Of a stretch of 64,000 nt of DNA, positions 5,264-53,976 are shown piece by piece. Origin of the DNA: Patescibacteria group bacterium (GTDB taxonomy: Bacteria > Patescibacteriota > Kazan-3B-28 > UBA10110); contig JAFGPN010000004.1 in assembly GCA_016936175.1 (NCBI GenBank), positions 5,726 through 69,725 on the forward strand, read 5' to 3'. The first letter of the stretch is position 1. Every line of letters starts with the position of its first letter. The position numbers and the translations under genes are program-made. Under the pieces are notes generated by a model that had not been told where the DNA came from, did not search any database, and saw only the letters and a list, made by a program, of their open reading frames with translations.

Positions 5264-6001
5264 TTATGCCTTAACCAGTAGCATTGCGATAATTCCCAAG
5301 ATCAAAACTGCTACCTGTCCAAATCTTGCTAACAAATATTTTCCGGTTTTTAATTCGGCAAATAGATCAACCAACGCAATGTAAATAAATCCTCCAGCAC
5401 CAACTGCAATGATGTACGGCACTACCTGCTGAATAGACTGAAGAGCAAAATAGGCCACCAGACCGCCGATTACTGCTACCAGAGCGGATAATAAATTCCA
5501 CCACAGCGCTCGTGTTTTGGTAAATCCGCTATGAATCAACACCGCAAAATCGCCTAACTCCTGCGGAATTTCGTGCAAGAGCATGGCAAAAGTTGTGGCG
5601 ATACCCACCGGTATGCTCACCAAAAAAGCAGAGGCTACAATTACGCCGTCCAAAAAATTGTGAAACGCATCCCCCACTAACACCGAATAGCCAATTACTT
5701 TTTTATTCCCGCACTCGTCACAATTGTGATGATGCTCGTGATGCCAGTGTAGCACTTGCTCAAACAACAGGAACAAAATTATCCCCCCGGCAGTGTAGTA
5801 CAACGCAATATTCCCGATTGCGGTAATTCCTTCTGGAATTAAATCTAACAACCCGACCCCCAACAGGGCGCCCGCCGCAAACGCCACTAACCACGGCATT
5901 GATTTATTTAGGGCCTTCTCACTAAACGCAAAATACAACGCTCCAATCAACGAAACCGCGCTAATGATTAATAAACTAATTAAAATGTAAAGTAATGTCA
6001 T
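5264..6001 (-). CDS. ZIP family metal transporter (ZupT-like)
   Basis: 245 aa and multi-TM, with a His-rich loop (HWHHEHHHNCDEC) and HNFLDG and HEIPQELGDF motifs. Confidence 0.8.
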   Translation of the reverse strand: MTLLYILISLLIISAVSLIGALYFAFSEKALNKSMPWLVAFAAGALLGVGLLDLIPEGITAIGNIALYYTAGGIILFLLFEQVLHWHHEHHHNCDECGNKKVIGYSVLVGDAFHNFLDGVIVASAFLVSIPVGIATTFAMLLHEIPQELGDFAVLIHSGFTKTRALWWNLLSALVAVIGGLVAYFALQSIQQVVPYIIAVGAGGFIYIALVDLFAELKTGKYLLARFGQVAVLILGIIAMLLVKA

Positions 6002-6651: not shown

Positions 6652-7809
6652 TTATACTGATTTCTCATGTGACATTTTTTCAATTGGGGCAAAGTAATGT
6701 TTGCCTTTTAGCTGCTCGGGTAGATAACTTTCTTTGTCATATTTTTCGTAGCCAGCGCCATAACCCAAACTCTTCATTAATTTGGTTGGCGCGTTGCGCA
6801 CTTTAAGCGGAATCGGCAGATTACCGTGCTGTTTTACATCTTCAATCGCCGCAAAATAAGCATCGTACGAGCTTCTATCTTTGGGACACCGTGCCAAATA
6901 CACTACACCGTGCGCCAGATTAATGGCACACTCTGGGAGCCCTATAGTTTCGACCGACCGAAACACCTCGTTTGCTACCACCAGAGCCGTCGGCTGAGCC
7001 ATCCCGATATCTTCTGAGGCAAAAACTACCATCCTTCGGGCAATAAATTTAGGGTCTTCTCCCGCTTCCACCATTCGAGCCAAATAGTACAGGGCGGCAT
7101 CGGGTTGGCTAGCGCGCATGCTTTTTATAAACGCGCTAATGGTGTTAAAGTGCTCATCCCCTTGCTTATCAAATCGCAGAAATTTATTTTGCAGGGTGTT
7201 GGTTAAACTCTCAACCGTTACCTTGCCATAAAAGTTTCGCGTATTTTCTAACATCGTAATCGCTTGGCGAGCGTCTCCGTTCGCCATATTAATTAACCAG
7301 TCGCGCGCTTCTTCATCTAACTTTATTTCGGAACGAGCGATAATCTGCAACATTTCGTCATGCGATAGCTCGTTTAAAACAAAAACTCGACAGCGAGAAA
7401 GTAGCGCGGGAATTACCTCGAAGCTAGGATTCTCCGTGGTAGCACCGATTAAAGTTAGCTCTCCCCGCTCCACATACGGCAACAAAAAATCCTGCTGGGC
7501 CTTGTTAAACCGATGGATCTCATCCAAAAACAACACCCGCGGCTTGATAGTGGGCTGACCAACTAATTTACGAATATCGTCCTTGCCAGACGAAACGGCC
7601 GACAGCTCCGTCAGCTCGACATCTAAAGCTTTAGCATAGATCTTGGCCAATGTGGTTTTGCCCACCCCCGGCGGCCCCCACAAGATAAACGAAAACAAAT
7701 GCTTATTTTCTATGGCGATTCGGAGGGGTTTGCCCTCGCCTACCAGATGAGTCTGCCCAATAAACCCAGATAGATCTTGTGGCCTAATTTGAGATGCTAA
7801 TGGCTCCAT
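6652..7809 (-). CDS. rarA: replication-associated recombination protein A (AAA ATPase)
   Basis: 385 aa with Walker A GPPGVGKTTLA, LFLDEIHRFNK and a C-terminal MgsA-type helical domain (ALYYLARM). Confidence 0.9.
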   Translation of the reverse strand: MEPLASQIRPQDLSGFIGQTHLVGEGKPLRIAIENKHLFSFILWGPPGVGKTTLAKIYAKALDVELTELSAVSSGKDDIRKLVGQPTIKPRVLFLDEIHRFNKAQQDFLLPYVERGELTLIGATTENPSFEVIPALLSRCRVFVLNELSHDEMLQIIARSEIKLDEEARDWLINMANGDARQAITMLENTRNFYGKVTVESLTNTLQNKFLRFDKQGDEHFNTISAFIKSMRASQPDAALYYLARMVEAGEDPKFIARRMVVFASEDIGMAQPTALVVANEVFRSVETIGLPECAINLAHGVVYLARCPKDRSSYDAYFAAIEDVKQHGNLPIPLKVRNAPTKLMKSLGYGAGYEKYDKESYLPEQLKGKHYFAPIEKMSHEKSV

Positions 7810-7925
7810 ACAGCCTATTATCGCACAGCTACGAATCAGGTATAATCAGGTTATATTTGTCATTCCCGGGTCGTCCCTGGCCGCACCCGAGGCGTAGCCG
7901 CGGGCAGGCTAATGGCAGTACCATT

Positions 7926-8195
7926 ATGTACTTTGTGTATATCATACGGAGTGCGACAACGAGGCGGCACTATGTGGGGCTGACTGCTGATGTTTGCAAA
8001 AGATTGGCTGCTCACAATTCTGGAACCACCAGACCAACTATCAGCGGACGCCCATGGTCGCTAATACATCAGGAAGAATTCAATACTAGGACAGAAGCCC
8101 GAGAACGAGAAAAGTATCTAAAAAGTTATGGTGGCGCCGGTGAGAAACAGGCTATAATCAGGGCGTCCGCTGACAATTATTCCCGGGTCGTCTAA
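7926..8195 (+). CDS. GIY-YIG nuclease family protein (small, stand-alone)
   Basis: MYFVYIIRS...HYVGLT...RLAAHNSG...EAREREKYLK is a GIY-YIG-type fold pattern. I moved the start to ATG 7926, because the track start at 7794 overlaps rarA. The 3' end overlaps the first 15 nt of tRNA-Gln. Confidence 0.7.
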   Translation: MYFVYIIRSATTRRHYVGLTADVCKRLAAHNSGTTRPTISGRPWSLIHQEEFNTRTEAREREKYLKSYGGAGEKQAIIRASADNYSRVV

Positions 8196-8254
8196 GGGCA
8201 GGACACTTGGTTTTGGTCCAAGGAATCGGGGTTCAAATCCCTGCCCGGGAGCCA
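8181..8254 (+). tRNA. tRNA-Gln (anticodon UUG), CCA encoded
   Basis: Manual cloverleaf. The acceptor stem tcccggg/cccggga has 7 perfect bp. D arm is gtc-taagggcag-gac, the anticodon arm is cttgg-ttTTGgt-ccaag, and the T arm is cgggg-ttcaaat-ccctg. Discriminator g is followed by cca. Total length 74 nt. Confidence 0.9.
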
Positions 8255-12936: not shown

Positions 12937-13351
12937 CTTGTCCCCGGGTTTAACCCGGGGACCCAGCAAAAACAAGAAAATGGCTGGCTATCTCTACATC
13001 CTTTCCAATCAGAAGAATGGCACATTATACATTGGCGCCACCTCCGATCTTCAAAAAAGAATTTGGGAACACAAAAACAAATTTGTTCCAGGGTTCAGTA
13101 ACCAATATAAATTATTCAAACTGGTCTACTACGAACAATTCGAAGACGTGCTATCAGCCAGAGCTCGCGAACGAACACTAAAGAAATGGAATCGTGATTG
13201 GAAAATAAAACTTATAGAAACACAGAATCCAAACTGGAAAGATCTATATCAATCAATTATTTAATTCTTTCTCGCCTTCGGGCTAGACCCGGAGGCCCAG
13301 AAAAAATAATTTATTTGCTGTCTGGGTCCCCGGATTAAATCCGAGGACAAG
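12937..13351 (+). mobile_element. GIY-YIG gene cassette bracketed by 30-nt palindromic units in inverted orientation
   Basis: The left unit cttgtccccgggtttaacccggggacccag (12937-12966) matches the reverse complement of the right unit (13322-13351) at 27 of 30 nt. A third, related unit lies at 13271-13300. Confidence 0.45.
12980..13264 (+). CDS. GIY-YIG nuclease family protein (small, stand-alone)
   Basis: MAGYLYILSNQKNGTLYIGATSDLQKRIWEH...ARERTLKKW shows GIY...YIG plus a conserved R/E pattern. The start was moved to ATG 12980. Confidence 0.75.
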   Translation: MAGYLYILSNQKNGTLYIGATSDLQKRIWEHKNKFVPGFSNQYKLFKLVYYEQFEDVLSARARERTLKKWNRDWKIKLIETQNPNWKDLYQSII

Positions 13352-14034: not shown

Positions 14035-14118
14035 ACTCCCCCGCCATCGGAGGAGGAACGTCCTCGACTGGCGGCCGGTTTGGGGCCACCCGTTTGCCGG
14101 GACAAATGGGTGGTGAAA
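14035..14118 (+). repeat. structured intergenic element, short variant (copy D)
   Basis: ccgcca...tggcgg helix followed by the family 3' hairpin gccacccgtttg-ccggga-caaatgggtgg, as in copies A, B, C and E. Confidence 0.7.
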
Positions 14119-14184
14119 AGAATAACAGATTAAAATCCTGAAACAAGTTCGGGATGACAACGGTGTTTTGTAGGGGAACTTCCA

Positions 14185-15155: not shown

Positions 15156-15572
15156 CTACCACTCAGAAGCCAAGGAAAGTAGCTCGTTTTGAATACTACG
15201 GAAAAAATCCTGGTCTTCTTTATATGTCAGCTTCTCTGCCACCTGAGCAATCGGTACCCATCTGCACTTCAGTATCTCCATGCTCGGTGTTAAGGGCTGA
15301 TTGGCGGCCCGAAACAAAAAATAGTAGATGGTCATAAATTTGTTCTTATCCCCAGACATTCGGGAATAAGATGGATAAGATTTAACATAGTTCAGATTAT
15401 CTGGCTCTATCCCCGCCTCCTCGCCGATTTCTCTAAGGGCGGCCTCGAGATACTCTTCTCCCGGTTCTACCGTGCCTTTGGGCAGTTGCCAACTGTGGGT
15501 ATGAGTAAAAACGAGGACGACCTCGCCCACCTCGTTAACGATTACCCCACCGGCTGATTCTTTTTTAGTCAT
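15156..15572 (-). CDS. NUDIX hydrolase
   Basis: Nudix box GTVEPGEEYLEAALREIGEEAGI. The start was moved to ATG 15572, giving an 8-nt overlap with the cysS stop. Confidence 0.8.
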   Translation of the reverse strand: MTKKESAGGVIVNEVGEVVLVFTHTHSWQLPKGTVEPGEEYLEAALREIGEEAGIEPDNLNYVKSYPSYSRMSGDKNKFMTIYYFLFRAANQPLTPSMEILKCRWVPIAQVAEKLTYKEDQDFFRSIQNELLSLASEW

Positions 15573-17022
15573 TGGTCGATATCCTTGGCCCCCGATTGGT
15601 ATCCTCCACCACAAAACCCAGCTTAGCTATTCTATCGCGCAGTTTATCTGATCTTTGCCAATCTTTGGCCTTCCGAGCCTTTTCTCGCTCTGATACCAGC
15701 TTTTTTACTTCCGCCGGAATCGCTGACGGCTTGTGGTCTTTTAACCCCAATCCTAAAACTTTATCAAAATCCAGCAAAGTTGCCTGTTTGTCCGACAACG
15801 ATTTTTTCGATTTTAACAGTTCCCAAACTACCGTCATTGCCTTTGGCATATTCAAATCATCATTTATCGCCGCCAAAAATCTTTTCTTATATGTCGTGTC
15901 CACTTTCCCTTTGTCATTCCCGCGCCATTCGGCCTCGAGCTCATGGCCGAGAGGAAGGCGGGAATCCATTTTTGTTTTCTGGCTGGATCTCCGGGTCAAG
16001 CCCGAGGATGATGGGAGGGACACAGCAAATACTGCTCGTAATTTATTCAATGAATTCTGTGCGCCTACCAGCGCTGACTTAGAAAAACCTAACTTTTGTC
16101 GATAGTGACCAGAAATCGCCAAATACCGGAATACCATTGGTTCGATTCCCTGCCCCGCTAAATCAGTTAGGGTGTAGAAATTGCCGGCACTCTTGGCCAT
16201 CTTGGCACCATTCACTACCATAAACGCATTGTGGAACCAATAATGCGCTAACGGCTTACCGTACGCCGCCTCGCTTTGAGCAATCTCATTGTTGTGATGA
16301 GTGGCGATGTGATCTTCACCACCCGTATGAATATCAAACGGCTGGCCCAGCTCTTTGGTAGAAATTGCCGAACACTCAATGTGCCAACCCGGATATCCCA
16401 CTCCCCAAGGAGATTTCCACTCCTGTTGCCGTTTTTGCATCCCGGAGAACTTCCATAAAGCAAAGTCGGTTTCTCGTTTCTTATATGGACTGTGCCATAC
16501 TCGCGCCTTACCGGCACCCACTCCACCTAGTCTGCCATAGTTTTTAAATTTGGCCGTATCAAAATAGATTCCATCGGAAGTTTTGTAGGTATAGCCTCTT
16601 TTTTCCAGCTGCTTAATTAATTCGATCTGTTCTTTAATATATTTGCTGGCCCACGCAAATTTATTTGGTAACTCAATGTTTAAAGCTTTTAAATCTCTAA
16701 TGAATTGTTCAGTATAAAATTTGGTAATCTCTTTCGCAGTTTTGCCAGTTTTCTTCGCTTCGCGCTCAATCTTGTCTTCGCCAGTATCGGCATCCGAGGT
16801 TAAATGGCCAACATCGGTGATATTCATCACCTGACGAACTTTGTATCCGTTGTATCCCAACACTCGCCGCAAGATGTCTTCCGCTAAATATGCCCGCAGA
16901 TTGCCGATATGCGCATACTGATAAACAGTTGGTCCGCAGGTATATACAGAAACCTGACCGCGTTTTATCGGTTTAAACTCCTGTTTCTTCCGCCCCAATG
17001 TGTTGAAAAGTTTTAATCCCAT
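15565..17022 (-). CDS. cysS: cysteine--tRNA ligase, carrying an in-frame repeat insertion
   Basis: 485 aa with HIGN, a KMAKS loop and a DALR-like C-terminus. See the repeat at 15913-16013. Confidence 0.92.
   Translation of the reverse strand: MGLKLFNTLGRKKQEFKPIKRGQVSVYTCGPTVYQYAHIGNLRAYLAEDILRRVLGYNGYKVRQVMNITDVGHLTSDADTGEDKIEREAKKTGKTAKEITKFYTEQFIRDLKALNIELPNKFAWASKYIKEQIELIKQLEKRGYTYKTSDGIYFDTAKFKNYGRLGGVGAGKARVWHSPYKKRETDFALWKFSGMQKRQQEWKSPWGVGYPGWHIECSAISTKELGQPFDIHTGGEDHIATHHNNEIAQSEAAYGKPLAHYWFHNAFMVVNGAKMAKSAGNFYTLTDLAGQGIEPMVFRYLAISGHYRQKLGFSKSALVGAQNSLNKLRAVFAVSLPSSSGLTRRSSQKTKMDSRLPLGHELEAEWRGNDKGKVDTTYKKRFLAAINDDLNMPKAMTVVWELLKSKKSLSDKQATLLDFDKVLGLGLKDHKPSAIPAEVKKLVSEREKARKAKDWQRSDKLRDRIAKLGFVVEDTNRGPRISTND
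15913..16013 (+). repeat. two-unit palindromic element inserted in-frame in cysS
   Basis: Positions 15913-15966 are identical over 54 nt to the intergenic copy at 17034-17087. They are followed by a second hairpin unit (ggatctccgggtcaagcccgaggat). The element encodes ...SSGLTRRSSQKTKMDSRLPLGHELEAEWRGND... Confidence 0.85.
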
Positions 17023-17033
17023 ATTTTTCTCTC

Positions 17034-17160
17034 GTCATTCCCGCGCCATTCGGCCTCGAGCTCATGGCCGAGAGGAAGGCGGGAATCTAGAAAACAAAAT
17101 GATTTTTATTTTTTTATCTGGATCCCCGATGTCGAGTCGCTCTGCGCTCGGCTCGAGGAC
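17034..17160 (+). repeat. two-unit palindromic element, intergenic copy upstream of cysS
   Basis: The 54-nt unit gtcattcccgcgccattcggcctcgagctcatggccgagaggaaggcgggaatc is followed by an AT-rich spacer and then a ctggatcccc... hairpin unit. Confidence 0.85.
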
Positions 17161-24480: not shown

Positions 24481-25482
24481 TCATAATACCACAGACTCCC
24501 CGGCCAACCACCTCAACCGTTGAGTAATTTTTCGCCCGCTCACATGTGCCAGATACCCCAAATATGATGGCATCGCTTTGACTACAGTGCCCAAATTGCC
24601 CACCGTCATCTCCCGCGAAATCCTCCCACATATTCGTTTGACTGTTTTCCTCCTCGGCAGGTTGTAGTGGGGCAGAGCGTTGTATCCTATAAAATCTATA
24701 CCCCAAGAGAGTTTGCGTAAGATGAGCTTGTCGGGGTGGAGCTGCAACTTCAGCTCGGATTTCAGAAAATGAGCTATCTCCACAAAATATCCCATCAACT
24801 CACCGGGACCGTCTGCTAACAATGTAAAATCATCGGCATAACGGAGATAGCGCTTAGCTCGAAGCCGATGCTTAGCAAACTTGTCCAACGGATCGAGATA
24901 AACATTGGCGAATAACTGGGATGTCAGATTCCCCAACGGCATCCCTGTGCCACCCGTCTTGTCATTCCCGCTTAGGCGGGAATCCAGGCAACCGAAGCTA
25001 CCAATGATATTTTCCAATAGCCCCAATAATCGCTCATCAGCAATACGGGTTTGCAACAATTCCATCAGCACCTTGTGGTCTACACTATCGAAAAACTTAC
25101 GAATGTCTAACTCCAACGCCCAACAGGGGCTGGTATAGTTTTTACTCACCTTCCGAGCCATCTCTGCCAGTCGGAAAAATCCTTTGTGCGTTCCCTTGTT
25201 CTTCCGGCAAGAATAGCTGTCAAATATAAAGGTTTTATCAAAAGCCGAATGCAGGATACGATAGATGGCATGGTGAAGCAGTCGGTCATGGACAGACGCC
25301 TTACTGATCAGTCGGGGCTTGGGGTCGGAGATGCGGAACTGTTGGTAACCACCATGGCGATACGTACCATCTACCAGCTCTTCGTGCAGGGCAAATATGT
25401 TATCTTCAAGATGGAGTTCAAACGCTTGGACATCCGACTTACTCCGTTTCCCTTTCAGAAACTCCGTCCAGGCTAAGAACAA
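24481..25482 (-). CDS. DGR-type reverse transcriptase
   Basis: 333 aa with YADDF (motif 5) and LGNLTSQ, which fits the [ILV]GxxxSQ signature that separates DGR RTs from group II intron and retron RTs. It uses a TTG start. The RT-like sequence EIISLENL continues in frame upstream to a stop at about 25541, with no canonical start in between. Confidence 0.85.
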   Translation of the reverse strand: MFLAWTEFLKGKRSKSDVQAFELHLEDNIFALHEELVDGTYRHGGYQQFRISDPKPRLISKASVHDRLLHHAIYRILHSAFDKTFIFDSYSCRKNKGTHKGFFRLAEMARKVSKNYTSPCWALELDIRKFFDSVDHKVLMELLQTRIADERLLGLLENIIGSFGCLDSRLSGNDKTGGTGMPLGNLTSQLFANVYLDPLDKFAKHRLRAKRYLRYADDFTLLADGPGELMGYFVEIAHFLKSELKLQLHPDKLILRKLSWGIDFIGYNALPHYNLPRRKTVKRICGRISREMTVGNLGTVVKAMPSYLGYLAHVSGRKITQRLRWLAGESVVL

Positions 25483-25518
25483 ATTCTCTAACGAAATAAT
25501 CTCTGCAAAGACACCATC

Positions 25519-25897
25519 ATGGAAAATAACTTTCCCATTAAGCCCCCCCTACGGATTTGGAGAAATCCCGATTGTATTGAGATTGTATGAGTTCTACCGG
25601 CTTTTGCATGATGCCATTCAAAAATTTCCCAAGTCAGAGAAATATTCTCTCGGTCAGACGCTTCAGAATACGACTCTCGCCCTGCTACGATCGATTATAA
25701 TTGCTACCCGATCAGACAAAATGACTCGAAGAGATTATTTGGTTGCCGGTAATGCCGACCTAGATGTTTTAAAACTGCTTATCCGCCTAGCGGTCAACAC
25801 TCAATCGCTGGATCAGAAAAAATATCTTCTACTGGAAACCCAGCTCCAAGAAATTGGTCGGATGCTAGGCGGATGGCTCCGCAGTTTAGAAAATTAG
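25519..25897 (+). CDS. Avd-like four-helix-bundle accessory protein, frame interrupted at a C7 tract
   Basis: ...EIPIVLRLYEFYRLLHDAIQKFPKSEKYSLGQTLQNTTLALLRSI...LETQLQEIGRMLGGWLRSLEN matches the 23S-IVS/Avd family pattern. ATG 25519 is one frame off, and loss of one C in 25543-25549 would fuse the two frames. The alternative in-frame TTG at 25577 would clip helix 1. Confidence 0.6.
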
Positions 25898-25899
25898 CT

Positions 25900-26029
25900 A
25901 CTCCGAGGAAGGCCACCACCGTACCATAGTTGTCGTTCGGATTGTCAGCATTCCTGTTGTCGAACTTCAGCTGATCGTCGTTGAAATAGAAGTACACAGA
26001 GTTCGTCCAGTTGCCATCGGCGTTCCAGT
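25900..26029 (-). repeat. DGR template repeat (TR)
   Basis: 130 nt, collinear with the VR at a constant +448 offset. Read on the minus strand it encodes the Asn-rich WNADGNWTNSVYFYFNDDQLKFDNRNADNPNDNYGTVVAFLGV. Confidence 0.85.
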
Positions 26030-26260
26030 GTTGCCTCTTCACTATCCAGGTCACTGCGAGCTAAAGGTGATAGCTTCGCTGTATTTTATGTGGGGAGTTA
26101 CCCTCAATCTTATGAGAGGCAAGGAGTGTCTAATTCTCAAGTCGGCCCTCTCGGGTGGAATAAATTCTACCAGACTCCGGCCGGGTGCTTGTGACACAAT
26201 TTCGGCGGACTAAATCCGTAAACTTAGCCACACTGCCTACTTTCACATCTATTTTACAAT

Positions 26261-26291
26261 AAAAAATGCGGCGGGTAGAAACACCCGCCGC
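26261..26291 (-). terminator. intrinsic terminator after the DGR target gene
   Basis: The hairpin gcggcgggt-agaaac-acccgccgc is followed by a U6 run on the minus strand. Confidence 0.75.
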
Positions 26292-26343
26292 CTTGAAAGC
26301 GAACGCAAAGTTCGAAAATTGCAAAGGACCAATCCCCAAGTTG

Positions 26344-27246
26344 CTACACTCCGAGGAAGGCCACCACCGTACCACAGTCGTCGTCCGGATAGCCAGCACG
26401 CCTGTCGTCGAACACCAGCTGACCGTCGTCGAAAGCGAAGTACACAGAGTCCGTCCAGTCGCCATCGGCGCTCCAGTCCCACTCATCTCCCGAGCAATCA
26501 ACGAAGAGTTGCCCATAAGCGGTAAGCCGGTCCGGCATGGTCAGTAGCAGGCAAGCCACTTGAGCGGTGATCAGCGGAAGCTGATTATTGTTCAGCGCTT
26601 CGAAGCGAGCATTGCGGGGACTGAAGCCAGCGTAGAGATCGCCGAAATTGAAGGACAGCACTAGCACATCACCGGGGGTCTCGGCCTCCAGCTTCTTTAG
26701 CTGCTCCCGGACATCTTCCATAATGCGGATGTGCTGCTCGTCCATCTGACCCGCTCGGTAGTTATAGAAAGAGCGGCTCGCGGCAATCAGTTCGAACAGT
26801 TTCTCACACATCGCGCCATAGCCCTTGCCATAAGGATCAGTGATATTCCAGAGCTCAGCCAAATAGGCAAGCTTAGGAATTACCGCCAATCCGTCAGCCA
26901 ACTTCTGTGCCTTGACCTTGGCTACTAACGCATCAACCTGCGACAGATCGATCCGCTTAAATAGCTTGATCAAGCGAGCCTTTTGCTCCTCGATAGTGGC
27001 CGATTTCCACCCCTTAGGGTAGAACCAGGCCCGCTTGACCCGTTCATCAATGTACGGGTTGGTCGGAATCAGTGCCTCGAACAGGGCGACGAACTTCTGC
27101 TTGAAGTCACTTACCCAGTTCGTGTCACTGATCATCCTCTGGACCATAGCAAAACCAAATCGGTTCAGTACGGTCTTCAAGGCATCAATTACAAACGAGC
27201 CGATCTGCCGGGCTTGCCCAACAGTCATCAAAGTTGACCTCGACAT
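26344..27246 (-). CDS. DGR target (variable) protein
   Basis: 300 aa from ATG 27246, with RBS aaggag 7 nt upstream. The C-terminal 43 aa are VR-encoded. I see no signal peptide or TM helix, and the N-terminal ~250 aa are unrecognised. Confidence 0.8.
   Translation of the reverse strand: MSRSTLMTVGQARQIGSFVIDALKTVLNRFGFAMVQRMISDTNWVSDFKQKFVALFEALIPTNPYIDERVKRAWFYPKGWKSATIEEQKARLIKLFKRIDLSQVDALVAKVKAQKLADGLAVIPKLAYLAELWNITDPYGKGYGAMCEKLFELIAASRSFYNYRAGQMDEQHIRIMEDVREQLKKLEAETPGDVLVLSFNFGDLYAGFSPRNARFEALNNNQLPLITAQVACLLLTMPDRLTAYGQLFVDCSGDEWDWSADGDWTDSVYFAFDDGQLVFDDRRAGYPDDDCGTVVAFLGV
26348..26477 (-). repeat. DGR variable repeat (VR), 3' end of the target gene
   Basis: 17 mismatches to the TR. 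16 of them fall where the TR has A on the coding strand. The 3'-most 27 nt are identical and GC-rich. Confidence 0.85.
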
Positions 27247-27488
27247 CTGAAGTCTCCTTTTTAACCAACCTCTGCGAGGCATTCCGGTTTACCGGAACTT
27301 ACGGGTTAGACCGCCTCCTCAGCGTTGGGTTAGCACAGCCGCTAACGCTACCAATGTAGCACAAAACTCGCTCCCAGCCAAGATTTTCCCGCTCCCAAAC
27401 CTGATTTTATTCTACCCTCTTCTCTATCCCGCCCTCCAGATTAGAGCGCTTTTACGCCATTGGAGCCCGAGTGTCCCTGTCTTTCTTA

Positions 27489-27684
27489 CCCCATTGAGCA
27501 AATTGCGTTATCCGGCAGTAAAACTGCCGTTTGGCGCGATCGTTGTCTGAGGCCAGCTACATGGGTAGATGGCCGAGTTCGATCGATATAAGCCAAGTAA
27601 GGCAGTTTTGGTAGCCGGATAGCAATTTGTGATTGGGTCCGCCTTTGGGCGCCACCCGTTTGGCGGGGCAAATGGGTGGCAAAA
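27489..27684 (+). repeat. structured intergenic element, full copy A
   Basis: The 5' arm ccccattgagcaaattgcgttatccggc pairs with the 3' arm gccggatagcaatttgtgattgggt. The conserved core is gagttcga..aagccaagtaaggca. The 3' hairpin is gccacccgtttg-gcgggg-caaatgggtggc, followed by aaaa. Confidence 0.8.
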
Positions 27685-27714
27685 GTAAATTAAGAAAAAA
27701 TTTTATGTTTCTTT

Positions 27715-27840
27715 CTGGGTCCCCGTCTTCACGGGGATGACAGAAAAAATGGATTCCTGCCTTCGCAGGAATGACAAGTTGGGGTTCTAGGTCCCCGGGT
27801 CAAGCCCAAGGACAAGGGAGCAAGGTCCGCCAGCTGGCGG
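27715..27840. repeat. cluster of short palindromic hairpin units
   Basis: The units are ctgggtccccgtcttcacggggatgacag, ggattcctgccttcgcaggaatgacaag, ctaggtccccgggtcaagcccaaggacaaggg and ccgccagctggcgg. Confidence 0.8.
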
Positions 27841-39280: not shown

Positions 39281-39292
39281 ATTCGTATATTA

Positions 39293-39485
39293 CCCCATTG
39301 AACAAATTGCGTAAGCCAATAGCAAAACTGCCGCTACGGCGCGGCTGCTATTTGAGTCCCGGTATACCGGGACGAGTTCAACTAATAGAAGCCAAGTAAG
39401 GCACCGTTTTGCCTTTTGGGTAGTAATTTGTGATTGGGGCCGCCTTTAGACGCCACCCGTTTGGCGGAGCAAATGGGTGGCAAAA
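39293..39485 (+). repeat. structured intergenic element, full copy B
   Basis: Same architecture as copy A. The internal hairpin is gtcccgg-tata-ccgggac and the 3' hairpin is gccacccgtttg-gcggag-caaatgggtggc. Confidence 0.8.
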
Positions 39486-39531
39486 CAAATTTTAGTAACT
39501 TTGGTAAAAGTAAACAAGATATAATGGGTGC

Positions 39532-40884
39532 ATGGCTAATACAATTCAATTTTTGGGCGCCGCGGGAGTCGTTACCGGCTCTAGTTATTTAGTATCAACC
39601 GATTCGGCTAAGTTCTTGATCGATTGCGGATTGTTTCAAGGCGCGGCGGCGGCGGACAGAAAGAATTATCAATCGTTCCCTTATAATCCAACCAAGATTA
39701 ATTTTCTTATTTTAACTCACGCTCACTTAGATCACTGTGGCTTAATCCCTAAACTGTATCGGGATGGATTTCGGGGACGTATCTACACTACCCCGGCAAC
39801 CTTCGATCTAGCTCAAGCCATTTTAACCAACGCCGCCCAAATCCAAGAACACGGCGTCACCGACAAACAACTGGAAGCTTTGTTTATAAAACGCGACGCC
39901 ACTAATTCGTTTAAGCTTTTCGAAACTCACGAATATGGTAAAACCTTCTCCCCGATGCCGGGCATTAAAGTGCGACTTAATGATGCCGGGCATATCTTGG
40001 GAGCCGCCATCGTCGAGGTATGGATCCAAGGTCAAAAACTGGTCTTCTCCGGAGATCTGGGCAACAGCCCGGTACCCATCATGAAAGACCCCACCATTAT
40101 TCGAGACGCTAACTATGTTATCTGTGAATCGACCTACGGCGATAGGTTGCACGAGCCACCTTCTGCTCGCGAAAAGAATCTATTGGCGACAATCAAGCAA
40201 GCCGCCAGAGATGGCGCCAAACTGATCATCCCCTCTTTTGCTTTAGAGCGCAGCCAAGATCTGCTCTACACTTTAAATAATTTTCGTAACAGCGGGGTAC
40301 TTCCCAATATCCCCGTGATATTAGACAGCCCCTTGGCCTCTCAAATCACCGATATCTTTAAGCGATACACCAAATTATTTGATGCGGATTTTCAAAGATA
40401 CTTAAAGACCGATAAAGATCTGTTCGATTTCCCCGGCTTTCGCCAGACCAGAACTAAATTTCAATCCAAGGCCCTAAACCAGTTATCGGGCGCCGCTGTG
40501 ATCATCGCTGGTTCTGGCATGGCCGATGCGGGCCGAGTTCAACACCATCTGCTTCACCATTTGGACGAACCCAGAACCCAAGTGCTATTCGTTGGCTTCC
40601 AAACTCCCAACACTTTAGGTCGCCGATTAATTAACGGGGCACGTCAGGTTAGAATAATGCGCCATCGGATTACGGTAAAAGCTCAGATCAAAGAGTTGGG
40701 CGCCTTCTCGGCTCATGCCGATCAGGCCGGACTACTGCGTTGGTTATCGGGCTTTACCTCTAAGCCCACTGTATTTTTGACTCACGGCGAAAATATCTCT
40801 CGCGAAGCGTTAGCTAAAAAAGTTTTGAGCAAACTTAAACTTAAGGCAGTTATCCCAGCTATGGGAGAGATAAAAACAATATAA
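39532..40884 (+). CDS. MBL-fold beta-CASP ribonuclease (RNase J/CPSF-like)
   Basis: 450 aa with the HAHLDHCG motif and beta-CASP and C-terminal motifs (SAHAD). TATAAT lies 7 nt upstream of the ATG. Confidence 0.8.
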   Translation: MANTIQFLGAAGVVTGSSYLVSTDSAKFLIDCGLFQGAAAADRKNYQSFPYNPTKINFLILTHAHLDHCGLIPKLYRDGFRGRIYTTPATFDLAQAILTNAAQIQEHGVTDKQLEALFIKRDATNSFKLFETHEYGKTFSPMPGIKVRLNDAGHILGAAIVEVWIQGQKLVFSGDLGNSPVPIMKDPTIIRDANYVICESTYGDRLHEPPSAREKNLLATIKQAARDGAKLIIPSFALERSQDLLYTLNNFRNSGVLPNIPVILDSPLASQITDIFKRYTKLFDADFQRYLKTDKDLFDFPGFRQTRTKFQSKALNQLSGAAVIIAGSGMADAGRVQHHLLHHLDEPRTQVLFVGFQTPNTLGRRLINGARQVRIMRHRITVKAQIKELGAFSAHADQAGLLRWLSGFTSKPTVFLTHGENISREALAKKVLSKLKLKAVIPAMGEIKTI

Positions 40885-45199: not shown

Positions 45200-45229
45200 C
45201 CCACCATCAGAGGCGCTGGTTTTCCTAGA

Positions 45230-45472
45230 CCCATTGAGGCGATTGCGTCAGCCAATAGCAAAACTGTTGCTACGGCGCGGCTGCTATTTGAGCCCCGGTA
45301 TACCGGGGCGAGTTCAGCTAATCTAAGCCAAGTAAGGCAGTTTTGGTATTTGGGTAGCAATTGGTGATTGGGAGGTCTTTTGGGGCGCCACCCCGTTTGG
45401 ATGCCCAGACTAAGACCATGGGTCTTTAGTTCGGAAATACTCTAGGGGGTACAAGCAAATAGGGTGGCAAAA
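45230..45472 (+). repeat. structured intergenic element, full copy C (with ~56-nt insertion in the 3' hairpin loop)
   Basis: The internal hairpin gccccgg-tata-ccggggc shows a compensatory change relative to copy B. The 3' stem is gccaccccgtttg ... caaatagggtggc. Confidence 0.8.
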
Positions 45473-45514
45473 CTGATTCTAAAAAAAGTCCTTATAGAAG
45501 CTATAATTAGACTG

Positions 45515-46297
45515 ATGGAACTAACCGTTCTAAAACTCGGGGGGAGTATTCTCACTCACAAATACCAGAGTGGAGAGTTTGACCCCGTTACGGCCGATCG
45601 GCTAGCCCAAGAAATCAGACAAGCACTGACCAGCTCCCCCCAGCAACTAATCTTAATCCATGGGGCAGGCGGTAAAGTTCATCGCTTGGCCAACGAGTCT
45701 AATCTAAAAACCGGAGCCATAACCCCAGCTCAGATTGATGGCTCGCTCAAAACTCATTTTGCGGTATGTGAGCTAACTCAGCAATTATTGCCCATTTTAT
45801 CCAACCACAATCTACCCGTAACGCCTCTCCCCGCCAACTCGATGTTCCTAATAAAAAATGGCCAGTTAGAAATCGTGGGGGCAGAGTTGGTTGAACGGGC
45901 TTTAAAACTCGGCCTGATTCCCCTACTCTCCGGTGATATGGTGTTTGACGATCAAACTAACTTTTCTATTTTATCTGGCGATCGAGTGGCCACAGTTTTA
46001 GCCCAAATATTTAAGGCTAAAAAAATTATCTTTGCCAGTGATGTTGATGGGCTATACGATAGTGACCCCAAAACTAATCCGCAGGCTAAGCTTATTAAAC
46101 AAGCCAAACTAAACAACATCGATACTACTGCTGATACCACTTCGTCGATTGACACCACCAACCAAATGCTGGGTAAGATCGCCGCGTTGATGAGAGATGC
46201 TAAAAATATTTCAGTTCAAATCGTTAACGGTTTAGTAGCTGGTCGATTAGAACAGGCTCTGACCAATCAATCGGTTATCGGAAGTTTGATTGAATAA
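45515..46297 (+). CDS. isopentenyl phosphate kinase-like (amino acid kinase family)
   Basis: VLKLGGSILT, LIHGAGGKVH and FASDVDGLYDSDPKTNP motifs. I moved the start to ATG 45515, because the track start at 45464 lies inside the repeat hairpin. Confidence 0.65.
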   Translation: MELTVLKLGGSILTHKYQSGEFDPVTADRLAQEIRQALTSSPQQLILIHGAGGKVHRLANESNLKTGAITPAQIDGSLKTHFAVCELTQQLLPILSNHNLPVTPLPANSMFLIKNGQLEIVGAELVERALKLGLIPLLSGDMVFDDQTNFSILSGDRVATVLAQIFKAKKIIFASDVDGLYDSDPKTNPQAKLIKQAKLNNIDTTADTTSSIDTTNQMLGKIAALMRDAKNISVQIVNGLVAGRLEQALTNQSVIGSLIE

Positions 46298-52208: not shown

Positions 52209-53639
52209 TCACTCCATCTTATTATATTTTTTTATCAGCTCTTTAACTACTTGTTTAAATTGATCTCCGCGATCGTAGGCATCCTTGAACATATCAAAAC
52301 TAGCAAACGCCGGGGCTAACAACACTGTGCCTTCGCTTTTAACATAGCGATAGGCTAGCTCAACCGCCGATGCCAAACTTTTGGCTGCCTTATACGGAGT
52401 ACGCACCTTAGCCGTCTTCAATTCTTTTGCTAACCTTTGGGTGCTTTTGCCAATCAACACAATCCCTCGGATTCGGCTATCATCTAAAGTCCGGGATAAC
52501 TCGCGCAGGTGTTCTCGTTTACTTGCTCCACCGATTATTATCGCTAACTGTCCCGGAATAGTGGCAATCGCCGCTAGAGCTGCCACTGGGGTGGTAGCCG
52601 CCGAATCATCTATAAACCGAGTCTTTCCTAAGACCCCGGCTAACTCTAAGCGATGAGGCAGACCTTTAAATTTACTTAGCCGCCTAACAATGACAGTCGG
52701 TTTTAACCCCACTATCAACACAGCACTCAAGGCGGCCAAGGTGTTCTCTAAATTATGTCGGCCAGGTAATGGAATCTGTTGTCGGTGGCACAAAACCACT
52801 CGCCGGCGAGTTTTGGGGTTTCGATAGATTACCTCATCACCAGCTAAGTAAAGACCTTTGGGCAAGATTTTACGGATGGAGTAAGAAAACTTTTTCCCAG
52901 CCGCTCGATGCAACGCTTCTCGAGTTATCGGGTAATCCGAGCTGGCAATCAGCCAATCTTGTTTACTCTGGCGAGTAAATAGATTGCTTTTGGCTTCCCA
53001 ATATCGCTTAAACTGCTTGTGGCGATCAAGATGCTCCGGCGATACATCCAGCATCACCGCCACATCCGGGCTAATAATTATGTCTTCCAGTTGAAAGCTA
53101 GAGAGCTCTAATATCACCCAGTCTTTTTTGGTCAACTTGGGCAATAACTTAAGTGGTGGCGAACCAATGTTGCCACCTAAATAAACTCGGCCCGGTAACT
53201 GCCCCGTCAATAGATGATGGATCAATTTGACTGTGGTGCTTTTGCCCTTAGTGCCAGTAACACCAATTATCTTGGCTGGGCACAGCTCAAAAAATATCTG
53301 CGTTAGAGAGCTCATTACCACCCCTCGTCGTCGGGCCTTTTTCAGCTGGGGCAGATCTAAAGGCACGCCTGGACTACGAAACAAAATATCTAATTCCCCC
53401 ACTTGATCGAGATAGGTTTTGCCCAAAAACAGCTCGGAGGTTAACCTTTTAAACCGACGGAGTAACTTTGGTTCTATATCCGATATCGGCTTACTGTCTA
53501 ACCCGATCGGTCTTAATCCAGCCGCATTCAAAAACTCGAGAACATCTAATCCCTCTCGCCCTAACCCCAACACCCCCACGCGATATGCCGGCTTAGTCGC
53601 TATTGTCATACCTGAATTATACCAAGTTAATCCAATCAC
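52209..53639 (-). CDS. murD: UDP-N-acetylmuramoylalanine--D-glutamate ligase
   Basis: 476 aa with a Rossmann-type N-terminus (VGVLGLGREG) and P-loop GVTGTKGKSTT. The true start may be ATG 53609. Confidence 0.9.
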   Translation of the reverse strand: MIGLTWYNSGMTIATKPAYRVGVLGLGREGLDVLEFLNAAGLRPIGLDSKPISDIEPKLLRRFKRLTSELFLGKTYLDQVGELDILFRSPGVPLDLPQLKKARRRGVVMSSLTQIFFELCPAKIIGVTGTKGKSTTVKLIHHLLTGQLPGRVYLGGNIGSPPLKLLPKLTKKDWVILELSSFQLEDIIISPDVAVMLDVSPEHLDRHKQFKRYWEAKSNLFTRQSKQDWLIASSDYPITREALHRAAGKKFSYSIRKILPKGLYLAGDEVIYRNPKTRRRVVLCHRQQIPLPGRHNLENTLAALSAVLIVGLKPTVIVRRLSKFKGLPHRLELAGVLGKTRFIDDSAATTPVAALAAIATIPGQLAIIIGGASKREHLRELSRTLDDSRIRGIVLIGKSTQRLAKELKTAKVRTPYKAAKSLASAVELAYRYVKSEGTVLLAPAFASFDMFKDAYDRGDQFKQVVKELIKKYNKME

Positions 53640-53640
53640 T

Positions 53641-53857
53641 CCCCCGCCATCGGATGATTTGTGCCCTATCCCATGTAGCCAATTGCGCTGTTTCCCCCGC
53701 CATTGGAGCTTGAGTGTTCTGAGCCCAACAAATCACTGTCGCGAAGCCCGTTGTCTGTTAGGGCGAGAGCGGTAAGGTGATTTGTTGAGGCGAATAGCGA
53801 GAGCGACTGGCGGCCGGTTTGGCGCCACCGTTTGCCGGGACAAATGGTGGCAAAAAA
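53641..53857 (+). repeat. structured intergenic element, mosaic copy E
   Basis: It shares cccccgccatcgg and gactggcggccggtttgg with copy D, and gccattggagc.gagtgt.c with the region upstream of copy A. Its 3' hairpin, gccaccgtttg-ccggga-caaatggtggc, is 1 bp shorter on both arms. Confidence 0.7.
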
Positions 53858-53879
53858 GATAATAAGCTAAAATTTCCGC

Positions 53880-53976
53880 CGGAGTTTATACTCGCTTGCG
53901 GGTGCAGGAATGACAAATCAATTTTTATGTCTGGATCCCCGTCTCCACGGGGATGACGACGCAGGGTAAACGTCGT
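53880..53976. repeat. cluster of short palindromic hairpin units
   Basis: The units are gcaggaatgacaa, tctggatccccgtctccacggggatgacg and acgacg-cagggtaaa-cgtcgt. Confidence 0.75.

Follow-up and report, generated by a model that had tools for sequence, protein, structure and literature searches.

A 64,000-nt stretch of a Patescibacteria group bacterium genome (GenBank assembly GCA_016936175.1, contig JAFGPN010000004.1, positions 5,726 to 69,725; hereafter the window) carries a structured element, copy E, at 53641-53857. E is one of a family of dispersed 160-230-nt elements, previously uncatalogued and so far seen only in Patescibacteria of the candidate phyla radiation (CPR), where density reaches five copies in 64 kb. 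Judging from covariation and from the remains of earlier copies, we give an even chance to the reading that E belongs to a family of non-autonomous, self-replacing structured-RNA elements with a 3′ pseudoknot as their conserved core. The original prediction for this region described a reused pseudoknot module; it did not include the extended rod, the likely triple helix or the family's membership of CPR bacteria.

Copy E proper spans 53697-53857 on the + strand, the structured, G-rich family strand in this window, on which all coordinates below lie unless stated otherwise. It matches positions 2-186 of the family profile (nhmmer, E=1.7e-27) and is a full-length member, with rod, 3′ pseudoknot and A-rich tail, lacking only the apical hairpin. 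The predicted fold, a rod plus a hairpin, has a free energy of -75.2 kcal/mol (z=-5.2). In the minimum free energy structure the rod occupies 53698-53812, and its helices covary across the family. It is closed by P1a, in which CGCCA (53698-53702) pairs with UGGCG (53808-53812), followed by an internal loop, UUGGAG/GAC, with tandem G.A pairs and then by further helices. The 5′ strand of pseudoknot stem S1, CCGG(U) at 53814-53818, pairs with S1b, (G)CCGG at 53834-53838, in the loop of the terminal hairpin, a pairing that also covaries across the family. Between that S1 5′ strand and the hairpin runs the linker UUUGGC (53818-53823). The terminal hairpin S2 (53824-53851) consists of GCCACCGUUUG, loop CCGGGA and CAAAUGGUGGC, in full GCCACC GUUUG CCGGGA CAAAU GGUGGC, and covaries in variant copies. 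Its arms, GCCACC and GGTGGC, are one base shorter per side than in copies A, B and D, whose lower arms are 7 nt, as had been noted.

The family sample comprises ~120 matches with ~80 distinct 3′ modules from Patescibacteria genomes and metagenomes, cited here by locus number. A scan of representative genomes gave 38 loci, 33 of them true members and the other 5 chance matches in coding DNA, and a metagenome scan gave 67 more; second copies with divergent hairpins were found by profile search of the fetched loci. Alignments, made with MAFFT, comprised first 36 and then 48 copies. All 33 true members come from Patescibacteria/CPR (candidate division Kazan, Saccharibacteria and unclassified Patescibacteria), and a viral contig collection gave 0 family matches. 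Proteins flanking the window copies are 79-89% identical to those of Kazan metagenome-assembled genomes, which identifies the window as part of a Kazan-type CPR genome. The same data dispose of a cyanobacterial MITE (miniature inverted-repeat transposable element), an identity raised by GATCGC-like words. Searched with Rfam 15 at gathering score, the whole window yielded only a tRNA at 8181-8251, and regions A and E gave only noise far below threshold at E<=10 (no SAM-II, preQ1-II, HEARO, IS605-orfB, T-box, 6S or SRP). A literature search found no description of the family.

The 3′ pseudoknot

The element ends in an H-type pseudoknot of which both stems covary. It lies directly 3′ of P1, the helix closing the rod, in the order S1a flank, linker, hairpin 5′ arm, loop strand S1b, hairpin 3′ arm; S1a (4-7 nt) pairs with the loop of the 11-12-bp terminal hairpin S2. 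The original prediction had proposed this topology, observing that copies D and E retain the hairpin with a loop that pairs with the 5′ flank, and that CCGCC/GGCGG in A (27639-27643 and 27662-27666) is replaced by CCGGT/GCCGG in D, a compensatory swap. Its reading of A was exact to the base. The D strands are present but had been placed one base off, and lie at 14075-14079 and 14096-14100.

The swap is real and extends well beyond two copies, as a covariation analysis confined to the 3′ module established. We compared 43 distinct flank/loop combinations from ~100 loci in a register-free permutation test. The longest complementary run averaged 5.09 nt, compared with 3.87 +/- 0.13 nt when partners were swapped between types, and exceeded all 2000 permutations (maximum 4.30). 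At least nine complementary versions of S1 occur: CCGCC/GGCGG, CCGGU/GCCGG, CGUCU/GGACG, UGUCU/GGACA, UCGCU/GGCGA, UCGGC/GCCGA, CCAGU/GCUGG, GUCGGC/GCCGAC and UGCCGGU/GCCGGCA. A few copies (L067, L099/L101, L090) have one mismatch, and Saccharibacteria-type copies have S1 with only 2-3 Watson-Crick pairs. In the latter (L022:3232-3417, L097, L098, L102), a flank UAUGG and a loop CCUAAA replace the Watson-Crick S1, a combination resembling the 11-nt GAAA tetraloop receptor (UAUGG/CCUAAG).

S2 covaries as well. Its variants include GCUACCGUUUUG/CAAAAUGGUAGC, GCUACCACUUUG/CAAAGUGGUAGC, CCGACUUUUUG/CAAAAAGUCGG and GUUACUUUUC/GAAAAGUAAC, among others, and in each the loop still complements its own flank. 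Across nine gap-free variants 98% of cells are paired, compared with 35-51% in slid controls, and 5/12 pairs carry double changes. A G.U pair in the hairpin is invariant among copies retrieved by pattern, the search pattern itself specifying that pair. In L077, an opposite-strand match, it is replaced by A.C. Protonated A.C is isosteric with G.U, so this copy hints that wobble geometry matters at the position.

The linker adds a further element of structure. The more U-A pairs there are at the top of S2, the longer the linker's U-run: among 59 real family 3′ modules (a 60th row, a reverse-strand artefact, was excluded), A-run and U-run measure 3/3 in 44 copies, 3/4 in 8, 4/4 in 5 and 5/6 in 1, so that lengths correlate in 58/59, with L090 as the exception. 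The additional, first U of the 3/4 copies forms a U.G pair in S1. In the GCUACC lineage, comparison of L086-2 with L036-2 and L048-2 reveals a change of the linker from UUUU to UUUC alongside a change of the fourth pair from the top of S2 from U-A to C-G. The two changes stand in parallel register, in mirror order, which argues against a simple alternative Watson-Crick helix. These patterns are suggestive of a linker that lies in the S2 major groove and forms a U.A-U/C+.G-C triple helix, with the U-run of E (in 53818-53823) as the proposed third strand. S1a trails the P1 3′ strand by at most 1 spacer nt, so P1, S1 and S2 are able to stack as one continuous helix, and an A-rich tail follows the pseudoknot.

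The pseudoknots of telomerase RNA and of the SAM-II and preQ1-II riboswitches have the same order (S1a, U-rich loop 1, S2a, S1b, S2b) and likewise place a U-run parallel to the purine strand of an A-U-rich S2; the covariation seen here fits such triples. In contrast to them, the family has no Rfam match, does not lie upstream of regulated genes and has no identified template region, and its pseudoknot caps a ~150-nt rod within a unit that as a whole is a multicopy dispersed repeat. A metabolite-sensing riboswitch of this triple-helix type would share the topology of the 3′ domain, and the mini forms described below, at 75-85 nt, are aptamer-sized. Gene context nevertheless comes close to refuting such a riboswitch, or any cis-regulatory leader: only 9 of 52 downstream genes are co-oriented, the other 43 being convergent, and the neighbours are unrelated housekeeping genes. 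The S1 sequence also varies freely, and no Rfam riboswitch model matches even at E<=10. We regard it as extremely improbable.

Rod, strand and orientation

Homology runs along the whole element. The rod is a long irregular hairpin closed by P1, with two conserved tandem-G.A internal loops. By explicit pair counting 74.4% of cells are paired, compared with 63.2% in shuffles (0/500 reaching the observed value) and 35-44% in slid controls, and 38/60 pairs carry changes on both sides; RNAalifold also supports the rod. Helix P1d is 90% paired, with columns such as UA:23/CG:19 and GC:18/AU:15/UA:5/CG:3. The conserved unpaired nucleotides form a basal loop, AUYGAR/UGAKU (UYGGAG/GAC in E-like copies), and an apical loop, UGUYUGAG...CGAGUU, each with tandem G.A. 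A kink-turn, which has a three-nucleotide bulge directly before tandem sheared G.A pairs, was considered for these loops and rejected: in the alignments the basal bulge is only 1-2 nt, and a covarying Y-K pair stands between it and the G.A pairs. In the mini forms (D, L007, L004, L065) all that remains is P1, the basal G.A loop and the pseudoknot, so this set is the conserved core. In the distant copies L038 (~1000-1040) and L008 (~5650-5700), an extra GC-rich hairpin (e.g. CCCGCCCGUACCGAAACGGUACGUACGGGCGGG) sits at the same rod position, where it separates the 3′ strands of the two innermost helices.

The family strand contains 31% G and 21% C. Its predicted fold is more stable than that of the complement by a mean of 15 kcal/mol, with the same sign in 51/51 copies; for the rod by itself this holds in 50/51, with 3.2 G.U pairs per rod compared with 1.45. 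The complement folds strongly too (mean -68 kcal/mol). DNA energy parameters give the same result in 51/51. From the kinds of non-canonical pairs seen, we infer that the folded species is RNA rather than DNA. On the minus strand, 27/48 copies lack a stop codon in at least one frame from end to end, where base composition predicts about a quarter. A conserved open reading frame (ORF) does not account for this depletion, as indels of 1-2 nt between subtypes exclude a conserved coding frame.

The copies lie in short intergenic spacers with the structured strand antisense to the neighbouring housekeeping genes. Their 3′ ends fall 8-200 nt beyond the stop codons of genes such as mraY (7 loci), ftsQ, rplL, tig, secF, folD, rpsF/ssb and an aminoacyl-tRNA synthetase (aaRS), often with gene-specific or REP-like hairpins in between, and their 5′ ends abut the promoter of the next gene. 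The GC skew of the window + strand is -0.07 to -0.16. Taken with gene orientation, this means that the elements run against both gene polarity and replication polarity.

Such a setting would also suit folded single-stranded DNA (ssDNA) that resembles attC, IS200/IS605 or REPINs, is acted on by a strand-specific recombinase or an HUH enzyme, and contains an H-DNA-type T.A-T/C+.G-C triplex. The strand asymmetry survives DNA parameters, pyrimidine-motif triplexes and G.T pairs form in DNA, the orientation bias against genes (43/52 convergent) and replication is strong, no promoter was found upstream of A or B, and a REP-like hairpin family shares the orientation. We still consider a DNA substrate unlikely. 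The structured strand is here the leading-strand template, the opposite of the lagging-strand template that IS200/IS605 elements are established to prefer, and no Y1/HUH gene recurs beside the copies. The left ends of IS200/IS605 carry a hairpin, whereas the family's 5′ end forms none by itself, and the invariant hairpin G.U, the frequent U.G in S1 and the tandem G.A loops are more typical of RNA. With integron attC sites the family shares a rod-like folded strand, conservation of structure over sequence, a variable apical part and strand specificity; it differs in lacking cassette arrays, an integrase and R''/R' core sites, and in its additional pseudoknot.

Alternatively, the reverse complement could be the functional strand, acting in cis in the flanking sense transcripts as a 3′ stabiliser, terminator or insulator. 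Its placement shortly after the stop codons of co-oriented upstream genes and just before the promoter of the next gene would be apt, the complement does fold strongly, and the 27/48 copies that are open on the minus strand would also be in line with this. The complement is less stable in every one of the 51 copies, however, and on it the G.U pairs of S1 and S2 turn into A.C mismatches. Its U-tract precedes the hairpin, so it is no intrinsic terminator, and the mirror covariation of linker and hairpin fits a pyrimidine third strand on the + strand only. Indels that are not multiples of three mark it as non-coding. We think such a cis function quite improbable. An intrinsic terminator fails on either strand, as on the + strand an A-tract follows the hairpin, and a terminator scanner makes no call.

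Stubs, chimeras and turnover

Many full copies have, upstream, pieces of 20-50 nt that correspond to the beginning of another subtype, comprising P1a, the G.A loop and the P1b 5′ strand. Two precede E. The first, CCCCCGCCAUCGGAUGAUUUGUGCCC (53641-53667), is a 3′-truncated copy of the first ~25 nt of the E-like subtype, recognised by the 5′ module pattern with 3 mismatches; a downstream partner strand for it was looked for and not found. The second, CCCAUGUAGCCAAUUGCG (53668-53692), represents the first ~22 nt of the A-like subtype, with 3 mismatches to the A 5′ end over 53670-53687. E had been described as lacking the ccccattga module, which does not hold entirely, since a degenerate version, CCCATGTAGCCAATTGCG, persists in this stub. 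The module reported to be shared by E and the region upstream of A is there: GCCATTGGAGC..GAGTGT occurs with zero mismatches at both 53699-53718 and 27456-27475. In E it is the 5′ strand of the element's own closing helix, and upstream of A it is an orphan 5′ stub of an E-type copy. A in fact follows two stubs (27428-27478), CCCGCCCUCCAGAUUAGAGCG of the L035/L068 subtype (27428-27450) and CGCCAUUGGAGCCCGAGUGUCC of the E subtype (27455-27478).

Stub subtypes match full copies at orthologous sites. A's outermost stub is of the subtype that stands as a full copy in L035 at the orthologous ftsQ site, and in L068, at the same site as E, an E-type stub lies ahead of a different full copy. The full copies of E and L068 are of quite different subtypes, though mraY is 88% identical (~12% protein divergence). 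A near-identical E-type rod occurs in another gene context (L100). All nine relatives seen have a copy in the mraY-murD spacer, though of differing subtypes. In the Germane/AA-kinase spacer, the window has an A-type copy (copy C) and L106 (83% relative) a different subtype with a GUUAC hairpin, and L107, L109 and L110 (79-85% relatives) have no family copy. To us the stubs look like the products of serial one-sided replacement that would begin in the conserved 3′ module and halt before the old 5′ end.

Rods and 3′ modules also have discordant histories. L036-2 and L053 are 88% identical in their rods and 67% in their 3′ modules; for L036-2 and L048-2 the values are 63% and 98%, and for L068-2 and L067 they are 89% and 49%. 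Modularity at the boundary between rod and 3′ module is thus genuine. The original prediction had called the family modular and D and E mosaics of its modules. Rods and 3′ modules do reassort; an assembly of D or E from unrelated modules, on the other hand, finds no support, as all five window copies align end to end with one family profile. E is a member plus two stubs, and D is a full-length element after internal deletion, the orthologous site in the relative L031 holding a full copy. Other small hairpin repeats are inserted in loops of family copies.

The remaining window copies are as follows. Copy A (27488-27690, full length) has its rod at 27490-27637, S1a at 27639-27643, the hairpin at 27651-27680 and S1b at 27662-27666, with a predicted fold of -102 kcal/mol in which a P1-closed rod precedes the hairpin. 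Copy B (39292-39488) and copy C (45228-45470) are also full length; B matches the profile with E=3.7e-38, and C carries a ~55-nt insert, itself a hairpin, inside the pseudoknot loop. D, the mini form (14041-14120), matches profile positions 130-186 (E=3.8e-14). Its P1a pairs CCGCCA (14041-14046) with UGGCGG (14069-14074) around a UCGGAG/GAC loop and a short cap, and is followed by S1a (14075-14079) and the hairpin (14085-14114) with S1b at 14096-14100. The hairpin pattern occurs 3 times in the window at up to 3 mismatches and 0 times in 100 shuffles; E supplies a fourth hairpin copy and C a fifth.

The comparative data suggest that the elements behave as non-autonomous selfish repeats, coming and going between related genomes and exchanging rods and 3′ modules. 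Other family members seem to replace a resident copy one-sidedly and leave stacked 5′ stubs behind, two in E and two in A. In the mechanism that we propose, the element would work as a transcript whose 3′ end is capped by the triple-helix pseudoknot, and the pseudoknot could be the cis signal at which copying into the resident copy begins, by an RNA-templated or a strand-invasion route.

Several points count against this reading. No sigma70-like promoter was found upstream of A and B, and no target-site duplication could be defined, the 5′ boundaries being blurred by stubs. Neither a transposase nor a reverse transcriptase nor any other protein recurs consistently beside the copies; the neighbours are housekeeping genes, and although A has a diversity-generating retroelement (DGR) reverse transcriptase at 2 kb and one L046 copy has another at ~1 kb, none lies near the rest. 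The C.G-C covariation comes from two copies with one common 3′ module. Fixed-column S1 counts on the MAFFT alignment are obscured, since S1 pairs in two registers and its CCGG is palindromic, and the register-free permutation test was used instead. Finally, the deep structural conservation and the persistent mraY occupancy suit a host-beneficial RNA equally well.

The elements could accordingly be read as paralogues of a trans-acting small RNA (sRNA) useful to the host, a protein-binding scaffold or a sponge held at fixed sites, with stubs and chimeras as by-products of gene conversion. Kazan, Saccharibacteria and further CPR lineages all retain the covariation and the conserved unpaired nucleotides, the mraY-murD site is filled in every relative examined, and genomes this tiny should tend to lose junk. 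A and the L038 copy, at the orthologous ftsQ site, are closely similar by eye, apart from a 34-nt insert in L038 (FtsQ is 88% identical), which points to vertical inheritance over that distance. On the other side, the C site is without a family copy in three of five close relatives, and where it is filled, in two cases, the subtypes differ; the orthologous mraY sites of E and L068 hold quite different subtypes at ~12% protein divergence; mini and insert-bearing copies are tolerated; and no promoter was found upstream of A or B. A host-beneficial sRNA is possible, but we doubt it.

A bolder form of the self-replacing reading is an ORF-less, RNA-based homing element class confined to CPR. It would be copied back 3′-first, by a host or DGR-type reverse transcriptase or by strand invasion, and the overwritten earlier occupants would leave the layered record of 5′ stubs. 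Alternatively the element could be the RNA of an unknown CPR ribonucleoprotein. We consider these proposals speculative and unlikely to be correct.

Whichever reading is right, CPR/Patescibacteria genomes are smaller than 1 Mb and have almost no described non-coding RNAs, and with its rod, two tandem G.A loops and triple-helix-signature pseudoknot the family would be among the most structured RNAs known from CPR. Its antisense position between essential genes, the reassortment of its modules and its apparent serial replacement from one side point to a copying mechanism outside the textbooks. If transcribed, it would offer a tractable natural triple-helix pseudoknot with a built-in mutational series, and it may mark genome dynamics in uncultivated symbionts.

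Known mobile elements and neighbouring features

Among known repeats, MITEs (Correia, ERIC, RUP), REPINs and Rickettsia palindromic elements come closest to a non-autonomous, self-replacing family. They are likewise multicopy, intergenic, ORF-less and largely palindromic, with variable occupancy between relatives, nested insertions and truncated copies. Unlike these repeats, the family keeps its structure by compensatory change across phylum-level CPR lineages, has an asymmetric 3′ pseudoknot with a triple-helix signature and a strong strand and orientation bias, and leaves 5′ stubs on one-sided replacement. No clear terminal inverted repeats, target duplications or cognate transposase were found; by eye, the 5′ module GCCAUUGG bears only a loose likeness to the reverse-complemented 3′ arm, GCCACCAUUUG, and there is no transposase among the neighbours.

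TnpB/Cas12 omega RNAs, CasX single guide RNAs and HEARO/IscB RNAs are mobile-DNA-linked scaffolds of 100-200 nt, present in several copies in some genomes, with a 3′ pseudoknot or triplex beside variable flanking sequence; in the CasX single guide RNA a triplex and a pseudoknot adjoin a 3′ guide. The family shares the scaffold size and the 3′ pseudoknot, with its putative triplex, next to a variable flank. No TnpB, IscB or Cas gene lies beside any of ~75 copies, and the Rfam HEARO and IS605-orfB models do not match. What lies downstream is the terminator region of the neighbouring gene, with no evident guide. We therefore rejected a TnpB/IscB guide RNA for want of a nuclease gene nearby, and likewise an IS200/IS605-type PATE or TnpB omega RNA, since the 5′ end has no local hairpin and pairs ~140 nt away. 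The bases upstream of the 5′ end vary (TTA, TAA, ATA, TCT).

Other identities were also discarded. A T-box leader, raised by a GGGUGG motif, has no aaRS association and the wrong orientation, and a tRNA-like minihelix, raised by the 12-bp stem, is at odds with the varying loop, the missing CCA and the absence of an Rfam tRNA match. A stub acting as a promoter (TTGGAG...TCTAAC) was rejected, as transcription starting at that point would leave out P1a, for which covariation is seen (A-U to G-C in L012 and L095). Pairing of the stub or U-rich leader with the A-rich tail gave only composition-driven matches.

TATAAT boxes lie 6-7 nt before start codons at 39500-39534, 45500-45517 and 53608-53620, and at L109:5150-5164, which suggests leaderless mRNAs. 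For murD and the AA-kinase gene, the starts of the longest ORFs (53639 and 45464) probably lie too far upstream, and 53608 and 45515 are likelier. Copy C was considered as the source of the AA-kinase start codon and rejected: that gene really starts at the ATG at 45515, which follows a TATAAT box of its own.

Copy A lies just upstream of the target gene of a DGR on the minus strand (24481-27282). The DGR comprises a reverse transcriptase (24481-25482; RVT_1, 1.8e-22), a bAvd-like ORF (25397-25897), a template repeat (25900-26029) and a variable repeat (26348-26477) at the 3′ end of the target gene (26344-27282), all on that strand. Differences between the repeats fall at T of the template copy on the + strand, that is, at A on the gene strand. 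A link between the family and the neighbouring DGR was rejected, only two copies being near a reverse transcriptase. Small stand-alone GIY-YIG nuclease ORFs (85-133 aa) turn up repeatedly no more than a few kb from family copies (window 12938-13264 and 7794-8195; L033, L057, L060, L085, L086, L091, L103).

A second, REP-like hairpin family, (C)UGGRUYCCCG-loop-CGGGRAUGAC, is mostly co-oriented with the larger family. Copies occur in the window at 27717-27741, 53875-53915, 53934-53958, 14143-14166 and 13322-13347, and on the reverse strand at 15904-15966 and 17025-17087. They nest in each other (L005), one sits in the apical loop of a family copy (L028), and in the relatives L001, L053 and L042 they are stacked in the interval from the big element to the mraY stop codon. 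The 63-nt copy at 15904-15966 lies inside the frame of cysS (ORF 15565-17022, cysteinyl-tRNA synthetase), its length being a multiple of three, and recalls the in-frame insertion of Rickettsia palindromic elements. A 94% identical copy lies just upstream of the cysS start codon.

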